In this document: in pieces, positions 2,533 through 7,440 of the stretch
Layout of the letters: every line of letters starts with the position of its first letter
How positions within the stretch are numbered: position 1 is the stretch's first letter
From: a virus
Taxonomy: Duplodnaviria; Heunggongvirae; Uroviricota; Caudoviricetes
Virus record (IMG/VR): IMGVR_UViG_2724678985_000018
DNA length: 8,282 nt
Strand: one strand, 5' to 3'
Program-made: the position numbers and the translations under genes
Notes under the pieces: model-generated
Databases searched by the model: none
Told to the model about the DNA's origin: nothing
Seen by the model: the letters and a program-made list of their open reading frames with translations, nothing else

Positions 2533-2670
2533 AAACATCGTGACGTTCCTTTGGGTGGGTGAGCCAACGCCCGGGAGCGATCTGCCCACAGAGAAAGTCA
2601 CACTGACCACTCCGTAAGCTCACCCCCGAAAGGCTCTGTGGTTGATATGCGCCGGGCGTGGCGCAGATAC

Positions 2671-2694
2671 AAAAAAGGCCCGCCGAAGCGAGCC
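2671..2694 (-). terminator. Rho-independent terminator downstream of the tRNA cluster
   Basis: Minus strand reads GGCTCGC-TTCG-GCGGGCC followed by TTTTTT. 7-bp GC-rich stem with one mismatch, tetraloop, U-tract. Lies 13 nt past the 3' end of the last tRNA. Confidence 0.6.
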
Positions 2695-2707
2695 TGGAAA
2701 ATAAGTG

Positions 2708-2784
2708 TGGCGCGTTGTAGTGGAGTCTAACCACTGACCGATTGCTTAGAAGGCAATTGCTCTGTCCGACTGAGCTAACAACGC
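2708..2784 (-). tRNA. tRNA-Arg (anticodon TCT)
   Basis: Manual cloverleaf from the reverse complement: GCGTTGT-TA-GCTC-AGTCGGACA-GAGC-A-ATTGC-CTTCTAA-GCAAT-CGGTC-AGTGG-TTAGACT-CCACT-ACAACGC-G-CCA. All four stems pair perfectly, CCA is encoded. The T-loop TTAGACT is non-canonical. Confidence 0.75.
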
Positions 2785-2797
2785 ATGATGCTGATAA

Positions 2798-2874
2798 TGG
2801 ACCGCCATCGGGGACTTGAACCCCGCGCAGCCAGCTTCGAAGGCTGGCGCTCTGTCCCGATGAGCTAATAGCGG
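2798..2874 (-). tRNA. tRNA-Arg (anticodon TCG), atypical acceptor end
   Basis: Manual cloverleaf: CCGCTAT-TA-GCTC-ATCGGGACA-GAGC-G-CCAGC-CTTCGAA-GCTGG-CTGCG-CGGGG-TTCAAGT-CCCCG-ATGGCGG-T-CCA. Canonical T-loop and perfect D, anticodon and T stems. Acceptor stem starts C1-G72 with a T at the discriminator position, both unusual. Confidence 0.6.
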
Positions 2875-2883
2875 TATGTAATA

Positions 2884-2959
2884 TGGTGGCCCTTGCTGGA
2901 TTTGAACCAGCGACCTGGCGATTATGAGTCGCTCGCTCTCACCACTGAGCTAAAGGACC
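2884..2959 (-). tRNA. tRNA with CAT anticodon, most likely tRNA-Ile2 (lysidine type) rather than Met
   Basis: Manual cloverleaf: GGTCCTT-TA-GCTC-AGTGGTGA-GAGC-G-AGCGA-CTCATAA-TCGCC-AGGTC-GCTGG-TTCAAAT-CCAGC-AAGGGCC-A-CCA. Closely resembles the E. coli ileX/ileY tRNA as I recall it, differing in acceptor and anticodon stems. One A-C mismatch at the base of the anticodon stem. Confidence 0.75.
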
Positions 2960-2987
2960 GAGCCAAAAAATAATAATCAGATGAAAA

Positions 2988-3701
2988 TCAATAATCAAGC
3001 CCTTGCCTGGATACATATCTGTCTGGCGGGAAGCCATAATAGCGGTGAAATACAGAAATAAAGTAGGACCTGCTTGAATAACCGCATTTTTCTGCTATAG
3101 CCTGTCCATATCCATGCCGGGAACATAACATATTTACAGCAACACGCATCCGCTCTTCCAGCAACAAGCGACTGAACATGCCCCCTTCATTTTTCAGTTT
3201 TGTCTTTAACAAACTCTCACTCATATGCAACTGTAGAGCAATCGCACCAAGCGTCCAGCTTGCTGATATATCTGTCTGAATTATCGCCCTGACTTTGGCA
3301 CTTATGCTGGATAAACATCCACTTAAAAACAATGACATCCGTTCATCTGTTTCAAACAGAGACAGGCAGGCCATCATAAGAAACATATCCGTGACCTCTC
3401 CGGAAAATCCCTGGCTGGTAATTAAAGCCGCAGCCAACGCAGGATTGTTGGGTTCCAGCAACAGGTAAAGCGGAATGTCAGTCAGACGAGTCCTCGTCAG
3501 CTTATGCTGACTTTCCAGATATTGACTTACGACGGATTCGCTTATATCGACAATTTTAACTTTGCCATAATGCATAAGGAAAAGCTCCCTGATGCATTTG
3601 GTGGCCAGAACGACTGAGCCTGGCTTAAGTGACAACGTATCCTTTTCAAGAAAAATATTAATTGGGGAGCAAACCATGATAACTGAACAGACAACAGCCA
3701 T
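2988..3701 (-). CDS. AraC/XylS-family transcriptional regulator (C-terminal double helix-turn-helix, N-terminal domain without a recognisable cupin)
   Basis: 237 aa. C-terminal WTLGAIALQLHMSESLLKTKLKNEGGMFSRLLLEERMRVAVNMLCSRHGYGQAIAEKCGYSSRSYFISVFHRYYGFPPDRY is a textbook AraC helix-turn-helix domain. Locus is visibly AT-rich compared with its flanks. True start may be the second Met (ATG at 3677). Confidence 0.8.
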   Translation of the reverse strand: MAVVCSVIMVCSPINIFLEKDTLSLKPGSVVLATKCIRELFLMHYGKVKIVDISESVVSQYLESQHKLTRTRLTDIPLYLLLEPNNPALAAALITSQGFSGEVTDMFLMMACLSLFETDERMSLFLSGCLSSISAKVRAIIQTDISASWTLGAIALQLHMSESLLKTKLKNEGGMFSRLLLEERMRVAVNMLCSRHGYGQAIAEKCGYSSRSYFISVFHRYYGFPPDRYVSRQGLDY

Positions 3702-3736
3702 TATAATTTTACTTTCATTAGCAATTGGTTAGCTCA

Positions 3737-3767
3737 ATTATAGCCCCAAAAGGTAAATTATCATCAA
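3737..3767 (-). promoter_or_regulatory. Candidate sigma70 promoter for the AraC-family gene
   Basis: Minus strand TTGATG (-35), 19-bp spacer, TATAAT (-10), about 35 nt upstream of the ATG at 3701. Spacer is longer than optimal. Confidence 0.3.
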
Positions 3768-3821
3768 CACATAAGCAAAGGACTGACAGGTGTCGCCCCC
3801 CCACCAGCCGCCCATTCACCA

Positions 3822-3849
3822 CAAATAAAAAGCCTTCAGGACTGAAGGC
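3822..3849 (-). terminator. Rho-independent terminator overlapping the 3' end of the 65-aa ORF
   Basis: Minus strand GCCTTCA-GTCC-TGAAGGC (perfect 7-bp stem) followed by TTTTTATTTG. The TGA stop of the upstream ORF lies inside the hairpin. Confidence 0.6.
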
Positions 3850-4033
3850 GTCTGTAACAACCGCACTGATAGTCTGCCAGACCCGCCATAACAAGCTGGG
3901 TCAGTATTAACTGGCAGCGTTCGCGTGAAAGGTAAGTATTCTGCGCAATCTCCCCGACTGTCGCCGGTTCGGTAACGCTTAATTCATTAAACACCACTCT
4001 GGCGGTTTCTGTCATATCCTGCTGTTTTAGCAT
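3836..4033 (-). CDS. Small hypothetical protein (65 aa), possible small DNA-binding protein
   Basis: MLKQQDMTETARVVFNELSVTEPATVGEIAQNTYLSRERCQLILTQLVMAGLADYQCGCYRRLQS. Co-directional with phage genes, followed immediately by a terminator. A weak AGGGAA lies about 9 nt upstream of the ATG. The ELSVTEPATVGEIAQ...LSRERCQLIL stretch suggests a helix-turn-helix or winged helix but I could not place it in a family. Confidence 0.45.
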   Translation of the reverse strand: MLKQQDMTETARVVFNELSVTEPATVGEIAQNTYLSRERCQLILTQLVMAGLADYQCGCYRRLQS

Positions 4034-4155
4034 GTCTTTTTTCCCTTTTGGTTAACGTGACATACCAATAACTCTTGTCCAAAAAGCCAGCAAGCAGAAA
4101 GACCGGTATTCGCAACCACCAGCGCATTTAACGCCCCGTGCCGTTTTTCAGTCAT

Positions 4156-4177
4156 AAAAAAACCCGCAAAAAGCGGG
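4156..4177 (-). terminator. Rho-independent terminator about 80 nt downstream of the Q-like gene (tR'-like position)
   Basis: Minus strand CCCGC-TTTTT-GCGGG followed by TTTTTTT (the + strand shows a 7-A run at 4156-4162). Sits between the Q-like gene and the downstream cargo, where lambdoid phages place the terminator that Q-modified polymerase reads through. Confidence 0.6.
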
Positions 4178-4256
4178 CTCTTTCAAATGTCCATGTCTGC
4201 TATTCGCCTCGCGGTACAGCTTTGCGAAGCGTACCGGAATTGAAGCAGTTTTTACG

Positions 4257-4823
4257 TCAAAAAGCAATAACTTTTTTATCTATACCAAAAGCCATAACCA
4301 TTGGTTTGTACAAAATAAATTCTGCCACCTTTAGCCAATGCTCAATGCGTCTTTCACAGGTTCTTAAACTCCATTCCGGATGTGCATCATTCAGCAGTTC
4401 AGCCATTTTGCGCTTAGTCATCCCCCGCCCCACATAACGCTGACTCAGAACATTGAGCAGCCCGGGATAACCTGCCAGTACTTCACCAATAACCCTGTCG
4501 ATTATTAACGCCTCTGAATCGGTACAATGTGCCAGCCAGCTTTTTTGATTGCCGTTGATCATATCCCGCAAAAAAGCCTCAAGTTCAGGTTTGTCCAGAC
4601 CCGCTTTTTTCATCCTCCGGAGCGCCTCGTTAATTGCCGTTTTTGTCAGCTTTTTAGAGGTCAGTAATTGGTTGAACATATTTCCCGTCTTACCGTCGCC
4701 AATATACGACCAACGCCCCCACATACGCAGTTTCCCCTGGATCCAGACACTTTCCAGCGTTTTCAGGCGTAAATGCTCACCGCTTTTGCCTGTAATTTCC
4801 GGGTATATCATATTTATGCTCAC
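4257..4823 (-). CDS. Putative late-gene antitermination protein (Q-like)
   Basis: 188 aa. Directly downstream of rusA with a 4-nt GTGA start/stop overlap, followed by an intrinsic terminator and then tRNAs and cargo. The segment LRMWGRWSYIGDGKTGNMFNQLLTSKKLTK resembles the WGAW...F.GL.TSK N-terminal segment I recall from phage 82/DLP12-type Q proteins. Annotated start is GTG at 4823; an alternative ATG is at 4811. Call rests mainly on synteny. Confidence 0.5.
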   Translation of the reverse strand: MSINMIYPEITGKSGEHLRLKTLESVWIQGKLRMWGRWSYIGDGKTGNMFNQLLTSKKLTKTAINEALRRMKKAGLDKPELEAFLRDMINGNQKSWLAHCTDSEALIIDRVIGEVLAGYPGLLNVLSQRYVGRGMTKRKMAELLNDAHPEWSLRTCERRIEHWLKVAEFILYKPMVMAFGIDKKVIAF

Positions 4824-5179
4824 TCACTTTCAATTTTGTAAATCTTCACGCCCAGCCGCCCACCAGAAACGAGCTGGCCGCGCACAATATTGATTTCATC
4901 AAACTGCTCGTCGTCTATGAGAAGTCCGGCATGCGTCAGCGCATCCAGTGGTGCTTTCAGGATATTGTCCAGGTCACGACGGCGCTTATCCGGTGGCTCT
5001 GCAATAATCTTTATCGCCAGCCTTCCGGACAGGTTTAATTTCAGCCGCTGCTGGCGAACAATAAGTGCCACATCCCGGCGATAACGCTCACCGGCTTTTG
5101 ATACAAAATATGTGCTGCCACGACGTCGCCAGTAGGTGTTCACCGTCGGCGGGTAAGGCAAAACAAACTCTATACGCAT
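4820..5179 (-). CDS. rusA: Holliday-junction resolvase RusA (crossover junction endodeoxyribonuclease)
   Basis: 119 aa with LPYPPTVNTYW...YRRDVA...PPDKRRRDLDNILKAPLDALTHAGLLIDDEQ...GGRLGVKI, matching the RusA pattern including the catalytic D-rich motifs. AAGAGG ribosome-binding site 7 nt upstream of the ATG. Confidence 0.88.
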   Translation of the reverse strand: MRIEFVLPYPPTVNTYWRRRGSTYFVSKAGERYRRDVALIVRQQRLKLNLSGRLAIKIIAEPPDKRRRDLDNILKAPLDALTHAGLLIDDEQFDEINIVRGQLVSGGRLGVKIYKIESE

Positions 5180-5191
5180 CAGTAACCTCTT

Positions 5192-6295
5192 TTACCCGAG
5201 CACGCCGGTTGCAAAGGCGTGATCAAGAAAACGAAAAATTAAATCAACCTGGGAACCATGCTTTTCTTCGAACGCCAGCGGATCCGCATGAAGCTCGTTG
5301 TGATGCTCCCGACACAGCGGTAGCGTGAAAATATCGTGGGATTTTGTTCCCATTCCGCCCTGACCATGACCAATCAGATGATGAGGATCGTCCGCTGGCT
5401 TACCACAACACGCACACGGCTGTGTCTTTACCCAGCGTGTGTATTTCTCATTTACCCAGCGGCGACGTTTAGGTCGTTTCATGAAGGATTCCGGAGACTC
5501 CGGATCAACGGCAATGCTGACCACCGTCTTTTCCTGTGGTGGGTTCTGTTGCTGGTGGGTGTGAGGCGGTAGCGCAATATTTTTTGTGCGCTGCTTCAGT
5601 ATGCTGGTGGCGGTCTGTTCTCCCGGTATGATGTCGCTTTCACGGTATACGGAGCGGATTTTTTCCGCCGGTAATCCCAGAGAGCGACGCGATACTGCCT
5701 CAGGTAATGCGTCCACCACCTGATTGCAGACTGCCCACCAGGATAATTCAGCCAGCGATAATTCCCGCTCCTGCGTGCCATTCATTACATGGCGTATGAC
5801 GTCAATCATCCAGGCTGTCAGATTTTGTTGAGTAAGTTGCTCAAGTGATTCGGAGGTCTGGTCGCGCAGCTGGTTGTCGCAGTGCCAGCACAACACCATT
5901 GCGCCAGCACCGTAACTGTGAATAACGGTTTCGCTGTGATGATAATCGCCGTGTGGCCACTGGCAGGATTTCACGTGACGTAATAACCAGTCAGACAGTG
6001 CACCAGCGCCGCCAGCTGCACGAATCACCCGCTCATCGCTGAAAAATGGCAGCAGTGATTTATCTTCCGCCAGCGGCTGGCGAACAGCAGGAACCGCTCC
6101 AGATGGCAGCGCCCGCATGTTTTTCGGTTCCGGCTCCACCAGCACCCTGCCGCGATGAAAAACTGGCAATGATTCACGACCGGGCTTAAGGACCACCAGC
6201 CCGAGTTCCGGAACCAGAACAGGTCGAAGTAATACCCGCACATTACCTCCAGACGCGCTGACGGTAGCAGGCATGTGTCCGTGGCAGATGTGCAC
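5192..6295 (-). CDS. DUF968-family phage protein with C-terminal HNH-like motif (YdfU-like)
   Basis: 367 aa from a GTG start. C-terminus CACCGKPADDPHHLIGHGQGGMGTKSHDIFTLPLCREHHNELHADPLAFEEKHGSQ is the Cys/His-rich signature I associate with Qin-prophage YdfU-type proteins. No Shine-Dalgarno before either the GTG (6295) or the first ATG (6274). The 5' end overlaps the preceding 90-aa ORF. Confidence 0.7.
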   Translation of the reverse strand: MHICHGHMPATVSASGGNVRVLLRPVLVPELGLVVLKPGRESLPVFHRGRVLVEPEPKNMRALPSGAVPAVRQPLAEDKSLLPFFSDERVIRAAGGAGALSDWLLRHVKSCQWPHGDYHHSETVIHSYGAGAMVLCWHCDNQLRDQTSESLEQLTQQNLTAWMIDVIRHVMNGTQERELSLAELSWWAVCNQVVDALPEAVSRRSLGLPAEKIRSVYRESDIIPGEQTATSILKQRTKNIALPPHTHQQQNPPQEKTVVSIAVDPESPESFMKRPKRRRWVNEKYTRWVKTQPCACCGKPADDPHHLIGHGQGGMGTKSHDIFTLPLCREHHNELHADPLAFEEKHGSQVDLIFRFLDHAFATGVLG

Positions 6296-6636: not shown

Positions 6637-6981
6637 TTACTTTAATAATTTCAGTGCCTTTACATCAACTTCAACACTGCTCAGGTCTTTATCAATTTCA
6701 CCCTCAATTCTTACTTTGTCTTTCGGAGAAACATTCTGCCCGGCCCATACGCTGTCATCAATATCCGTGACAATTGTCCCGCTATTGTCACGAAACTCAT
6801 AACGTTCATCACCCACTTTTTTAACGATGCTCCCTTCAAGGATAACCCATGCATCATCCTTCAGTTCTTTTGCCTGCGCTACTGTTGAACGCTCTGCTTC
6901 TGGCCCCTGGAAACCACCCTGCTGTGCAAAAGCGCCAAAAGACACACCGGAAATAAGTGCTGCAATCAATACCTTTTTCAT
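6637..6981 (-). CDS. YgiW/YdeI-family (BOF, DUF388) periplasmic OB-fold protein with signal peptide
   Basis: 114 aa. N-terminal MKKVLIAALISGVSFGAFA looks like a signal peptide. The mature region (QQGGFQGP...DDAWVILEGSIVKKVGDERYEFRDNSGTIVTDIDDSVWAGQNVSPKDKVRIEGEIDKD...VEVDVK) follows the YgiW/YdeI pattern. AAAGAGGA ribosome-binding site upstream. Confidence 0.75.
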   Translation of the reverse strand: MKKVLIAALISGVSFGAFAQQGGFQGPEAERSTVAQAKELKDDAWVILEGSIVKKVGDERYEFRDNSGTIVTDIDDSVWAGQNVSPKDKVRIEGEIDKDLSSVEVDVKALKLLK

Positions 6982-7100: not shown

Positions 7101-7256
7101 TTACTTCTCAGATTCGTAGTCTACGAAGACAGCGACCTCCGTCTGACCGGTTCGGATTCGCACCTCGCAGAGGTCTTTCCTCGTTACCAGTGCCGTCACT
7201 ATGACGGTTAAACAGATGACGATCAGGGCGATTAACATCGCCTTTTGCTGCTTCAT
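7101..7256 (-). CDS. hok: Hok/Gef-family type I toxin (membrane peptide, 51 aa)
   Basis: MKQQKAMLIALIVICLTVIVTALVTRKDLCEVRIRTGQTEVAVFVDYESEK is near-identical to E. coli HokD/RelF-type sequences as I recall them. GGAG ribosome-binding site upstream. The six-frame track extends this frame to an upstream ATG at 7313 (70 aa), but the conserved Hok start is the internal Met. Confidence 0.9.
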   Translation of the reverse strand: MKQQKAMLIALIVICLTVIVTALVTRKDLCEVRIRTGQTEVAVFVDYESEK

Positions 7257-7440
7257 AGCCTGCTTCTCCTTGCCTTTCGGCACGTAAGAGGCTAACCTAC
7301 ATGTGTTCAGCATGGATTGAGCCTCAGATTAATGTTAAGCGTCTTGCAGGACGCGTAATGTTAACTGGGGCTTTTCTCTATCTGCCGTTGGTGTTCATGC
7401 CCGAGGCAGATAGCCTCAAGCACCCGCTGCAATTCTACTT
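7257..7440 (-). promoter_or_regulatory. hok mRNA leader (expected to contain the mok start region and the Sok antisense-RNA target; sok would be encoded on the + strand here)
   Basis: Minus strand contains GCTTGAGGCTATCTGCCTC and TAGCCTCTTACGTGCCGAAAGGCAAGGAGAAGCAGGCTATG, which resemble the 5' end and the region just upstream of the start codon of plasmid R1 hok mRNA as I recall them. Candidate -10 TAGAAT just upstream of the presumed 5' end. Exact sok coordinates not determined. Confidence 0.45.

Follow-up and report, generated by a model that had tools for sequence, protein, structure and literature searches.

We analysed an 8,282-nucleotide (nt) stretch of IMG/VR record IMGVR_UViG_2724678985_000018 (the window), which by sequence identity is part of a lambdoid prophage of Escherichia coli O111:H- strain 11128 and of many O111 relatives. 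Its subject here is a gene of the DUF1133 family and the short region that follows it. This gene probably encodes the late-gene antiterminator of the prophage, and the cassette on which the protein would act appears to lie just after the gene and partly inside its last codons. The protein is homologous to the antiterminator Q of phage 21 (Q21), and the region after it carries a promoter-like block of conserved geometry, a -10-like element and a strong terminator, a combination that is found almost exclusively with DUF1133 genes. These observations support interpreting the locus as a Q21-superfamily antiterminator with its own pR'-pause-terminator cassette. What we say of function draws on homology, geometry and comparative conservation. 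An annotation made earlier from the letters of the window (the original prediction) had called the protein Q-like, mostly from gene order, and had placed a compact late-promoter and terminator module at the 3' end of its gene. The features discussed below are the following, in window coordinates.

4257-4811, minus: DUF1133-family gene, predicted Q21-superfamily late-gene antiterminator, 184 amino acids (aa) from ATG 4811
4277-4272, minus: A6 tract, UP-element-like, about 5 bp 5' of the -35; in at least 90% of 97 aligned sequences, non-coding loci included
4267-4262, minus: predicted -35 TTGCTT, in the last codons of the DUF1133 gene
4261-4245, minus: 17-nt spacer TTTGACGTAAAAACTGC, containing the stop codon; its downstream half AAACTGC is constant
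4247-4245, minus: TGc of an extended -10, supplied by the constant spacer half
4244-4239, minus: predicted -10 TTCAAT, at least 90% conserved
4233-4228, minus: TACGCT, proposed sigma-dependent pause element, -10-like (TAnGCT)
4233-4203, minus: conserved leader TAcGCTTCGCAAAGCTGTAcCGCGAGGCGAA, at least 90% conserved; the next ~20 nt are variable
4232-4156, minus: predicted short terminated transcript, ~74-77 nt
4183-4156, minus: intrinsic terminator (tR'-type), 12-bp hairpin and T7

Assignment of the DUF1133 protein to the Q21 superfamily

The maximal open reading frame (ORF; 4823-4257) starts with GTG and encodes 188 aa. The true start is probably ATG 4811, which gives 184 aa, because RefSeq uses it and all homologues begin MIYP. 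The protein matches DUF1133 (PF06576) with E = 4e-105, a family that Pfam and RefSeq label as of unknown function. A profile search against phage antiterminator families, which the original prediction had proposed as a check, also yields the Pfam family Phage_antitermQ (PF06530) at 33.1 bits, over a curated cut-off of 26 (E = 6e-8, residues 73-167). PF06530 is the family of Q21 and Q933W (Yin, Kaelber and Ebright, bioRxiv 10.1101/651190). Among the matches listed, PF06576 and PF06530 are both present in 120 of 120 homologues. In the reverse test, Q21 scores 22.0 bits on the DUF1133 model, just below the cut-off of 23.1. The best PHROG is 753 ("anti-termination protein Q-like"), and NCBIfam has no model for the protein.

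Searches of the PDB lead to the same family. With the single sequence (phmmer), Q21 is found at E = 1e-3 over two colinear stretches; with a profile of 28 DUF1133 proteins, the value is 4.7e-5, and Q21 is the only significant PDB sequence match. Aligning the 28-member profile with Q21 by hhalign gives 94% probability and E = 1.4e-7 over 137 columns, covering Q21 residues 6-155 of 162. A HMMER search of 1.84 billion cluster representatives returned only 91 matches, comprising about five full-length clusters and fragments, so the DUF1133 family is narrow; the sole full-length match from outside the family that we checked in this set is a Q21-like protein (P0206, E = 1.7e-4). A first AlphaFold (AF2) model, built from 28 close homologues, was set aside (mean predicted local distance difference test score [pLDDT] 55.6). 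A second, whose input alignment contained one Q21-like sequence, has residues ~100-175 at pLDDT 68-94. Its top 11 Foldseek matches in the PDB are all Q21 chains (E from 4e-4 to 4e-3, prob 1.00, template modelling [TM] score 0.5-0.67), and the next match has E = 1.6. We count homology to Q21 as established by these comparisons, and the Q-like identity that had been proposed thus holds by homology and not only by synteny.

Homology to the other Q types did not emerge. The phage 82 Q (PF06323) and lambda Q (PF03589) models gave no match to the protein at E ≤ 0.01. We also considered whether the protein might be the Salmonella AntQ (Hershko-Shalev 2016), a lead suggested by a 75%-identical Salmonella DUF1133 gene with isrK after it. 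The lead was misleading: AntQ (STM2617) of Gifsy-1 belongs to PF06323, the Q82 type, BLASTP finds no similarity between it and the DUF1133 protein, and the identification was rejected. A few database entries label homologues "late gene regulator" or "antiterminator," and the single paper in the literature searched that mentions DUF1133 assigns it, using HHpred, to the Q antiterminators (PMC8136144); in some Shiga toxin (Stx) phages (13; PMC8136144) the gene at the Q position is of the DUF1133 type.

The comparison with Q21 shows both shared and divergent parts. Common to the two are an N-terminal WxxGxLxxWGxW helix, a C-(T/N)-D motif, a TC(R/E)R.. recognition helix, and a C-terminal LYxPMxxAF, which in Q21 contacts polymerase. 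In Q21, DNA is bound via an HT[loop]H motif, the linker region of H1-H2-H3 forms a "torus" that narrows the RNA exit channel, and C-terminal residues touch polymerase (bioRxiv 10.1101/651190). The predicted DNA-recognition helix of the DUF1133 protein is TCERRIEHWLKV (aa 151-162). The HT[loop]H motif is incomplete: the flanking helices are present, but all aligned DUF1133 proteins have a gap of ~13 residues, which in the Q21-like sequence lies at ATAKPRKMCGRGG. The missing loop corresponds to Q21 residues 105-121 (B1-B2), which contact the minor groove and the second protomer. The torus-forming segment, conversely, is ~30 residues longer than that of Q21, or about twice as long, and identity between the proteins is ~18-26% (18-20% in the Foldseek alignments, 26% in hhalign). 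Because of the missing loop residues and the extra torus-segment residues, we class the protein, on these alignments, as a distant and divergent member of the phage 21/933W Q superfamily rather than as an orthologue of Q21, and details of its mechanism may accordingly be different.

A conserved promoter-like block at the 3' end of the gene

Related loci (individual ones are given as L numbers) were gathered by protein similarity, by looking up divergent variants through exact protein matches, and by searching viral contigs for a DNA pattern that came from the conserved block and is independent of the protein. There are ~200 related loci in all. Conservation was assessed on 98 unique 190-nt fragments, 97 of which were aligned, with a consensus threshold of at least 90%. 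The resulting consensus is aAAAAA-4 nt-TTG...-(17-nt spacer ending AAACTGC)-TTCAAT-5 nt-TA.GCTTCGCAAAGCTGTA.CGCGAGGCGAA. The A-tract, TTG, AAACTGC, TTCAAT, and TAnGCTTCGCAAAGCTGTAnCGCGAGGCGAA are thus at least 90% conserved, at a fixed 17-nt spacing. At least 90% of the unique sequences aligned, and every variant listed, keep the TTG of the -35, coding or not, and the -35 variants (TTGCTT, TTGATT, TTGCAA, TTGTAT, and TTGCAT) all lie exactly 17 nt from TTCAAT. The predicted transcription start is A4232, with G4234 possible. At the proposed pause element, TAnGCT differs among relatives only at its third position (C, A, or T); the commonest form, TAAGCT, is the start of the phage 21 pause element.

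The relation of this block to the coding sequence varies. In the window and in L097 the promoter-like part overlaps the last codons. In L003, L006, and L007 the overlap is in a different frame, with the stop TGA inside the -35 TTGATT, and in other loci the promoter-like part lies beyond the stop altogether, by 30 nt (L098 and L099) or 100 nt (L093). Since the promoter-like part is conserved whatever its coding status, selection acts on the DNA and not on the C terminus of the protein.

A promoter that overlaps the gene's 3' end had been expected, and the promoter-like elements found bear this out: the last codons contain the A-tract and the -35, and the spacer contains the stop codon (TGA, 4259-4257). 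The promoter hexamer then under consideration was another one. TTGACG does overlap the stop codon on the minus strand (4260-4255), and as had been noted there is no -10 at 16-18 bp from it, where the hexamers are TCCGGT, CCGGTA, and CGGTAC. TTGACG is separated from the conserved TTCAAT by just 10 nt, and the hexamer is not kept in relatives, which carry TTTACG, TTAGCC, or TGAGCC in its place. We therefore reject it as the -35, a role that TTGCTT takes instead; it is probably part of the predicted Q-binding site described below.

From the window alone the promoter does not stand out. A promoter scan found eight promoter-like sites against 7.7 expected, none of them at the DUF1133 cassette, so the evidence for a promoter is comparative. 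The scan does not call it because the -10 does not have an A at position 2 and the -35 matches at 3/6 positions.

The terminator and the predicted short RNA

The terminator core consists of CCCGC (4177-4173), a TTTTT loop, GCGGG (4167-4163), and T7 (4162-4156). ViennaRNA folds it as a 12-bp hairpin (4183-4157); our consensus scanner missed it because an A-U/G-U extension of the stem consumes the T-run. The distance of about 80 nt given earlier between the stop at 4257 and a strong terminator at 4156-4177 is accurate: the stop and the hairpin core are 79 nt apart, and the stop and the terminator end 101 nt. Of 214 cassette copies in the fetched loci, 206 have a canonical terminator, and relatives use at least six different stem sequences at the same distance. 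If transcription begins at the seventh nucleotide past TTCAAT, the RNAs predicted in relatives measure 72-79 nt, with a mode of 77.

The 77-nt RNA (4232-4156) has a predicted folding energy of -29.3 kcal/mol (z = -4.1; none of 200 shuffles was as stable). It would form an 8-bp 5' stem, pairing CGCUUCGC (4231-4224) with GCGAGGCG (4212-4205) around an 11-nt loop, followed by ~20 single-stranded nt and the terminator. The 5' stem is plausible, without covariation support: its variants in relatives (CACGAGGCG, GCGAGGCT, and GCGTGGCG) are uncompensated. A different hairpin, GGTACGCTTCGCAAAGCTGTACC (4235-4213), which came from a fold of the whole intergenic region, was rejected; it straddles the predicted start, and TAAGCT breaks one of its pairs without compensation. 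That position-3 variation breaks the pair argues that TAnGCT is recognized as DNA, in the manner of a -10, and not as an RNA stem. The conservation of positions +1 to +30 might reflect additional contacts with DNA or RNA as the protein loads, or a role in trans like those of the short RNAs StxS and IsrJ.

The short RNA is a member of no Rfam family. The isrK model (RF01394) scores 19.8 bits at 4157-4230, mostly from the terminator, against a gathering threshold of 50, and true isrK copies in L008 and L220 score 67-81 bits. The isrJ model (RF01393; gathering threshold 37) has no hit at E ≤ 10 in window positions 4100-4330. We therefore rejected membership in either family on scores. The anti-sRNAs of Tree 2014 and the small RNAs (sRNAs) PasA and PasC were likewise set aside, as their places in the late region are different and so are their conservation patterns. 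A full-text literature search with the RNA or DNA sequence of the cassette found no paper. On our reading, lysogens would contain an abundant 75-nt prophage RNA that has so far gone unnamed.

Linkage of the cassette to DUF1133 genes

The cassette is tightly linked to DUF1133 genes, which lie upstream in 208 of the 214 copies. In 190 the gene ends ≤150 nt upstream; in 18 it lies 0.8-1.9 kb upstream, mostly with gaps of ~0.82-0.94 kb behind an inserted isrK/C4/antirepressor unit. Three further copies have too little upstream sequence to judge. The remaining three have no DUF1133 hit upstream: two are preceded by an antirepressor gene (one with only 717 nt upstream), and one by a truncated DUF1133.

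The inserted unit, as seen in the distant cases examined (L008), comprises isrK, a P1-type C4 antisense RNA with its a1/b1 targets, a 45-codon ORF, and an ORF6N antirepressor. Instances are L008:3575-4378 and L220 (Gifsy-1) 33513-34329, as well as L073, L119, L135, and others. The unit is mobile and lies behind two unrelated Q families, the Q82 type in Gifsy-1 and DUF1133 in prophages of E. coli, Shigella, and Salmonella. Accordingly, the circuit published as isrK/AnrP resembles an immunity module of the P1 c4/ant type at the Q/pR' junction.

In Gifsy-1 the Q82-type Q (STM2617) is followed, behind the inserted unit, by IsrJ (RF01393, 100 bits) and not by a DUF1133-type cassette, whereas DUF1133 genes are followed by the DUF1133-type cassette. 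The type of short-RNA cassette thus follows the type of Q even across the insertion, which is what a cognate loading site predicts. A TTGCAA-17-TATATT promoter immediately follows the antirepressor gene; IsrJ itself (L220:33406-33480, minus) begins a few nt beyond this promoter and runs to a terminator. Judged by its position, IsrJ is the pR'-tR' transcript of the Q82-type late switch of Gifsy-1; it is not described so in the papers that we read.

One E. coli contig (L097) carries two identical DUF1133 genes 1.4 kb apart (44-604 and 1400-1960), each with a cassette; an assembly gap (N) truncates the first copy. The cassette as such is common: 1,818 of 5,426 complete E. coli genomes carry it, at 2,671 sites in all and in up to five copies each. 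Its carriers include O157, O111, and O121 Shiga toxin-producing E. coli (STEC) and some Stx phages; a cassette with 98.5% identity occurs in O157. In Stx phages, the type of Q and the pR'/tR' region set the amount of toxin made on induction. A third Q21-like type with a predicted promoter, pause element, binding site, and terminator would therefore offer targets for typing and for reporter assays.

Covariation of the recognition helix and the spacer

The most variable segment of the DUF1133 proteins is the one that aligns with the Q21 recognition helix, and the only variable part of the promoter is the upstream half of the spacer. The two change together, also across the 0.9-kb insertion, in the following combinations.

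TCERRIE(H/D/N)WL: spacer TTTGACG(T/C)A
TCEKRIA(N/H)WL: spacer T(T/C)TTACG(C/T)(A/G)
TCESRIDVWL: spacer TTTTGCGCGC (GCGCG class)
TCRNRI(D/G)xWL: spacer TTTTAGCCA(T/C) or TTTTGCCAA(C/T) ((A)GCCA class), in five protein contexts, adjacent and cassette-separated
TCKNRIDQWL: spacer TTTTGCCCAC (GCCCA class)
TCCSRVDV(W/R)L: spacer TTTTGCACA(C/T) (GCACA class), always cassette-separated
TCRRRIDQWL: spacer ACTGATCAAT (GATCA class)
TCRRRV(D/E)QWL: spacer AATGAGCCAC (GAGCC class)

The TCRRRV helix is the one most like that of Q21 (TCRREVDEIL), and the spacer of its class contains AATGAGCC, a 7/8 match to the Q21 element QBEd (AATGAGCA) at nearly the same place in the spacer. Since helix and spacer covary, we predict that the upstream spacer half (~4261-4252, including TTGACG) is probably a Q-binding element (QBE), an assignment that is reasonable but not conclusive; the QBE of phage 21 occupies the corresponding promoter spacer.

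A further-reaching proposal, which we put forward tentatively, is that DUF1133 proteins are a Q subfamily of their own, loading from one short site, and that helix and site have co-diversified into at least seven classes (TCE[KR]R/ACG, TCRNR/GCCA, TCKNR/GCCCA, TCCSR/GCACA, TCESR/GCGCG, TCRRRV/GAGCC, and TCRRRI/GATCA) of orthogonal pairs, with a functional leader. If so, orthogonal antiterminator/promoter pairs would stop co-resident prophages from cross-activating each other's late genes, and the conserved leader (+1 to +30) would be an RNA-level loading signal or a constitutive trans-acting sRNA present in about one-third of E. coli strains.

Comparison with known late switches

The closest counterpart is phage 21, for which we used the curated genome OL657228 (L092) and the Q21 structures PDB 6P18, 6P19, 6P1A, and 6JNX. 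Its late-switch region is arranged as follows, in L092 coordinates.

1533: Q stop
1540-1545: -35 TTGACA, 7 nt after the Q stop
1548-1563: QBE ATTGAGCA AATGAGCA, filling the spacer
1563-1568: -10
1575: transcription start site
1576-1582: sigma-dependent pause element (SDPE) TAAGCTG, starting at +2
1624: terminator end; the first tRNA begins at 1625

In both phage 21 and the window the Q gene is the last of the early-right operon, the -35 is near or overlaps the Q stop, the binding site (predicted, in the window) is in a 17-nt spacer, TA(A/C)GCT stands at the start of the transcript, and tRNA genes lie downstream. The order of gene, promoter, -10-like pause element, terminator, and late genes is therefore the one found here, as read from sequence and conservation. 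The short RNA of the window is ~75 nt with a conserved 5' stem, and that of phage 21 ~50 nt. Unlike phage 21, the window has a TTCAAT -10 with an upstream TG and an A-tract 5' of the -35. From Q stop to terminator end there are 91 nt in phage 21 and 101 nt in the window. The compact module of the original prediction is thus present, but it is not peculiar to this locus, and compactness is the norm of the family.

The Stx-phage Q933W system is similar in outline. There, a constitutive pR' lies behind the Q gene, and its transcript stops at tR' and accumulates as an sRNA in lysogens (Sy et al. 2020, PMC7547250), and tRNAs and morons lie downstream. In 933W-type phages, however, pR' to tR' spans 258 nt and StxS is an RNase E product, whereas the unit in the window is ~75 nt, and there is no sequence similarity. 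IsrJ of Gifsy-1 (PMC2330248, PMC4825925) is a 74-nt terminated RNA that has its own promoter and stands in the same place with respect to Q and the lysis genes. It lies after the isrK/C4/antirepressor unit, as some DUF1133 loci also have that unit between gene and cassette, but the Gifsy-1 Q is of the Q82 family and unrelated to DUF1133. Lambda Q, with pR' and 6S RNA, and phage 82 Q share the logic of sigma-dependent pausing close to the promoter, Q loading, and read-through of tR'. Their protein families (PF03589 and PF06323) are unrelated to DUF1133, and the lambda short RNA is 194 nt.

Proposed mechanism and alternative explanations

In the mechanism that we propose, sigma-70 RNA polymerase would start near 4232 from a constitutive promoter composed of the A-tract, TTGCTT, the 17-nt spacer, and TGc-TTCAAT. 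Without the DUF1133 protein, it would stop at the terminator (4183-4156) and give the ~75-nt RNA. Once the early operon makes the DUF1133 protein, this would bind the upstream spacer half (~4261-4252), meet polymerase held by sigma at TACGCT (4233-4228), and load onto it. The modified polymerase would then pass the terminator into the 65-aa helix-turn-helix (HTH) gene, the AraC-like gene, the tRNAs, and the lysis and morphogenesis genes.

Several points weigh against this scheme. The AF2 model of the protein is only moderately confident (mean pLDDT 58), and the protein has neither the Q21 loop nor a torus segment of Q21 length. The -10 TTCAAT does not have the near-invariant A at position 2, and the -35 agrees with consensus at only three of six positions. 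If +1 is A4232, TACGCT spans -1 to +5, which puts it 3 nt upstream of its place in phage 21. The spacer TTTGACGTAAAAACTGC has no direct repeat like the two 8-bp QBE subsites of Q21, although this fits the absence of the loop that mediates protomer-protomer contact in Q21. The covariation of helix and spacer is mostly between sequences 30-100 nt apart, so that shared descent could produce much of it, an objection weakened only by the cassette-separated cases. Lastly, the literature that we searched contains no experimental work on DUF1133 proteins or on the short RNA.

Some of these points would suit a sigma-region-4-like activator. Such a protein would bind the spacer/-35 region and recruit polymerase to a weak late promoter, and the terminator would do no more than shape the short RNA or attenuate basal transcription. 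The promoter is indeed weak on paper (TTGCTT/TTCAAT, no A at -11), and known pR' promoters are constitutive; the protein differs from Q21 in the loop and the torus-forming segment, and its confidently modeled part is the HTH-containing C-terminal half. However, 206 of the 214 copies keep a strong terminator, built from many different stem sequences, at a set distance of 72-79 nt from the start, and an activator alone could not pass it. The homology to Q21 is also full-length, including the WxxGxLxxWGxW helix and the polymerase-contacting LYxPMxxAF, and the -10-like TAnGCT stands at the transcript start as in phage 21. We consider activation an improbable explanation.

Nor is it likely that the cassette is mainly a stand-alone gene for a trans-acting sRNA (of the Hfq or ProQ type, with host mRNAs as targets) and hitch-hikes beside DUF1133, with the link to antitermination secondary. 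The predicted RNA has the classic shape: a stem-loop at the 5' end is followed by 20 nt of single-stranded, A/U-rich sequence and then by a terminator ending in a U-tail (z = -4.1). A pause site by itself would not call for conservation as high as that of positions +1 to +30, and StxS and IsrJ are precedents of pR'-type short RNAs with trans functions (PMC7547250, PMC2330248). Yet such a role is compatible with antitermination, as StxS is both; the near-complete linkage (208 of 214 copies) and the covariation of spacer and helix would not be expected of an independent sRNA gene; and no conserved single-stranded region looks like a seed, the single-stranded part being the variable one.

It is very unlikely that there is no promoter, that the terminator ends the early-right operon, and that the conserved block is a 3' untranslated region (UTR) element (a processed sRNA or an mRNA stabilizer): the weak consensus match and the constant position downstream of a same-strand gene would agree with this, but the A-tract, TTG, and TGnTTCAAT are all conserved at exact promoter spacing 5' of the RNA-like part, the block stays with DUF1133 yet sits behind the antirepressor gene once the unit is inserted, the phage would otherwise have no late promoter between Q and the lysis genes, and IsrJ, which holds the corresponding position in Gifsy-1, has a promoter of its own from which it is expressed on a plasmid (PMC2330248).

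Genomic setting

Positions 2568745-2571445 of NC_013364 correspond to window positions 2600-5300. The relevant genes are all on the minus strand. The DUF1133 gene is the last after DUF968 and rusA on the same strand, with the lysis genes downstream. In gene order, the principal features are as follows.

minus: DUF551 protein, first in the gene order
7101-7425, minus: hok/sok-type toxin-antitoxin module
6637-6981, minus: BOF/YgiW-family OB-fold periplasmic protein
minus: small ORF, between the BOF/YgiW gene and the DUF968/HNH gene
5192-6295, minus: DUF968/HNH
4820-5179, minus: RusA
3836-4033, minus: 65-aa TrmB-like winged-helix (HTH) protein, PHROG 331
2988-3701, minus: AraC-family regulator, 237 aa
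2708-2959, minus: tRNA-Ile(CAU)/Arg/Arg
86-2502, plus: IS66-family element

The order rusA, antiterminator gene, terminator, and tRNAs given originally is therefore right, except that the HTH (3836-4033) and AraC-like (2988-3701) genes intervene before the tRNAs. Beyond the window are genes for TerB, a sialate esterase, holin, lysozyme, and terminase.

The 65-aa HTH gene lies directly 3' of the terminator and has a terminator-like site near it (3849-3832). Together with its leader (from 4167 downstream) it is also found in Stx phages with other upstream genes, such as phiP27 L23 and Stx2a phages with a DNA methylase, which places a mosaic boundary inside the terminator. The AraC-family regulator is nearest to YdeO/GadX (acid-resistance regulators), well under their cut-offs, and is a moron between the late promoter and the tRNAs; the best sigma-70-like site of the window (10/12 matches, 3764-3737) is just 5' of it.

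The IS66-family element lies just downstream of the tRNA cluster and opposite to the late operon (tnpA 86-511, tnpB 508-858, transposase 889-2502; ISEc47-like in RefSeq), and a read-through transcript would have to pass it before reaching the lysis genes. The early region of the prophage carries IS1203 and exonuclease pseudogenes, so the prophage is probably defective.

Upstream, the hok/sok-type module comes next after DUF551 and includes a sok RNA (RF01794, 7251-7425, 113 bits) and a Hok/Gef ORF of 70 aa (7101-7313). The BOF/YgiW-family gene (PF04076, E = 2e-33) is a stress-tolerance-type moron of the early-right region; its product has a signal-peptide-like N terminus, and the gene has its own terminator-like site at 6621-6599.

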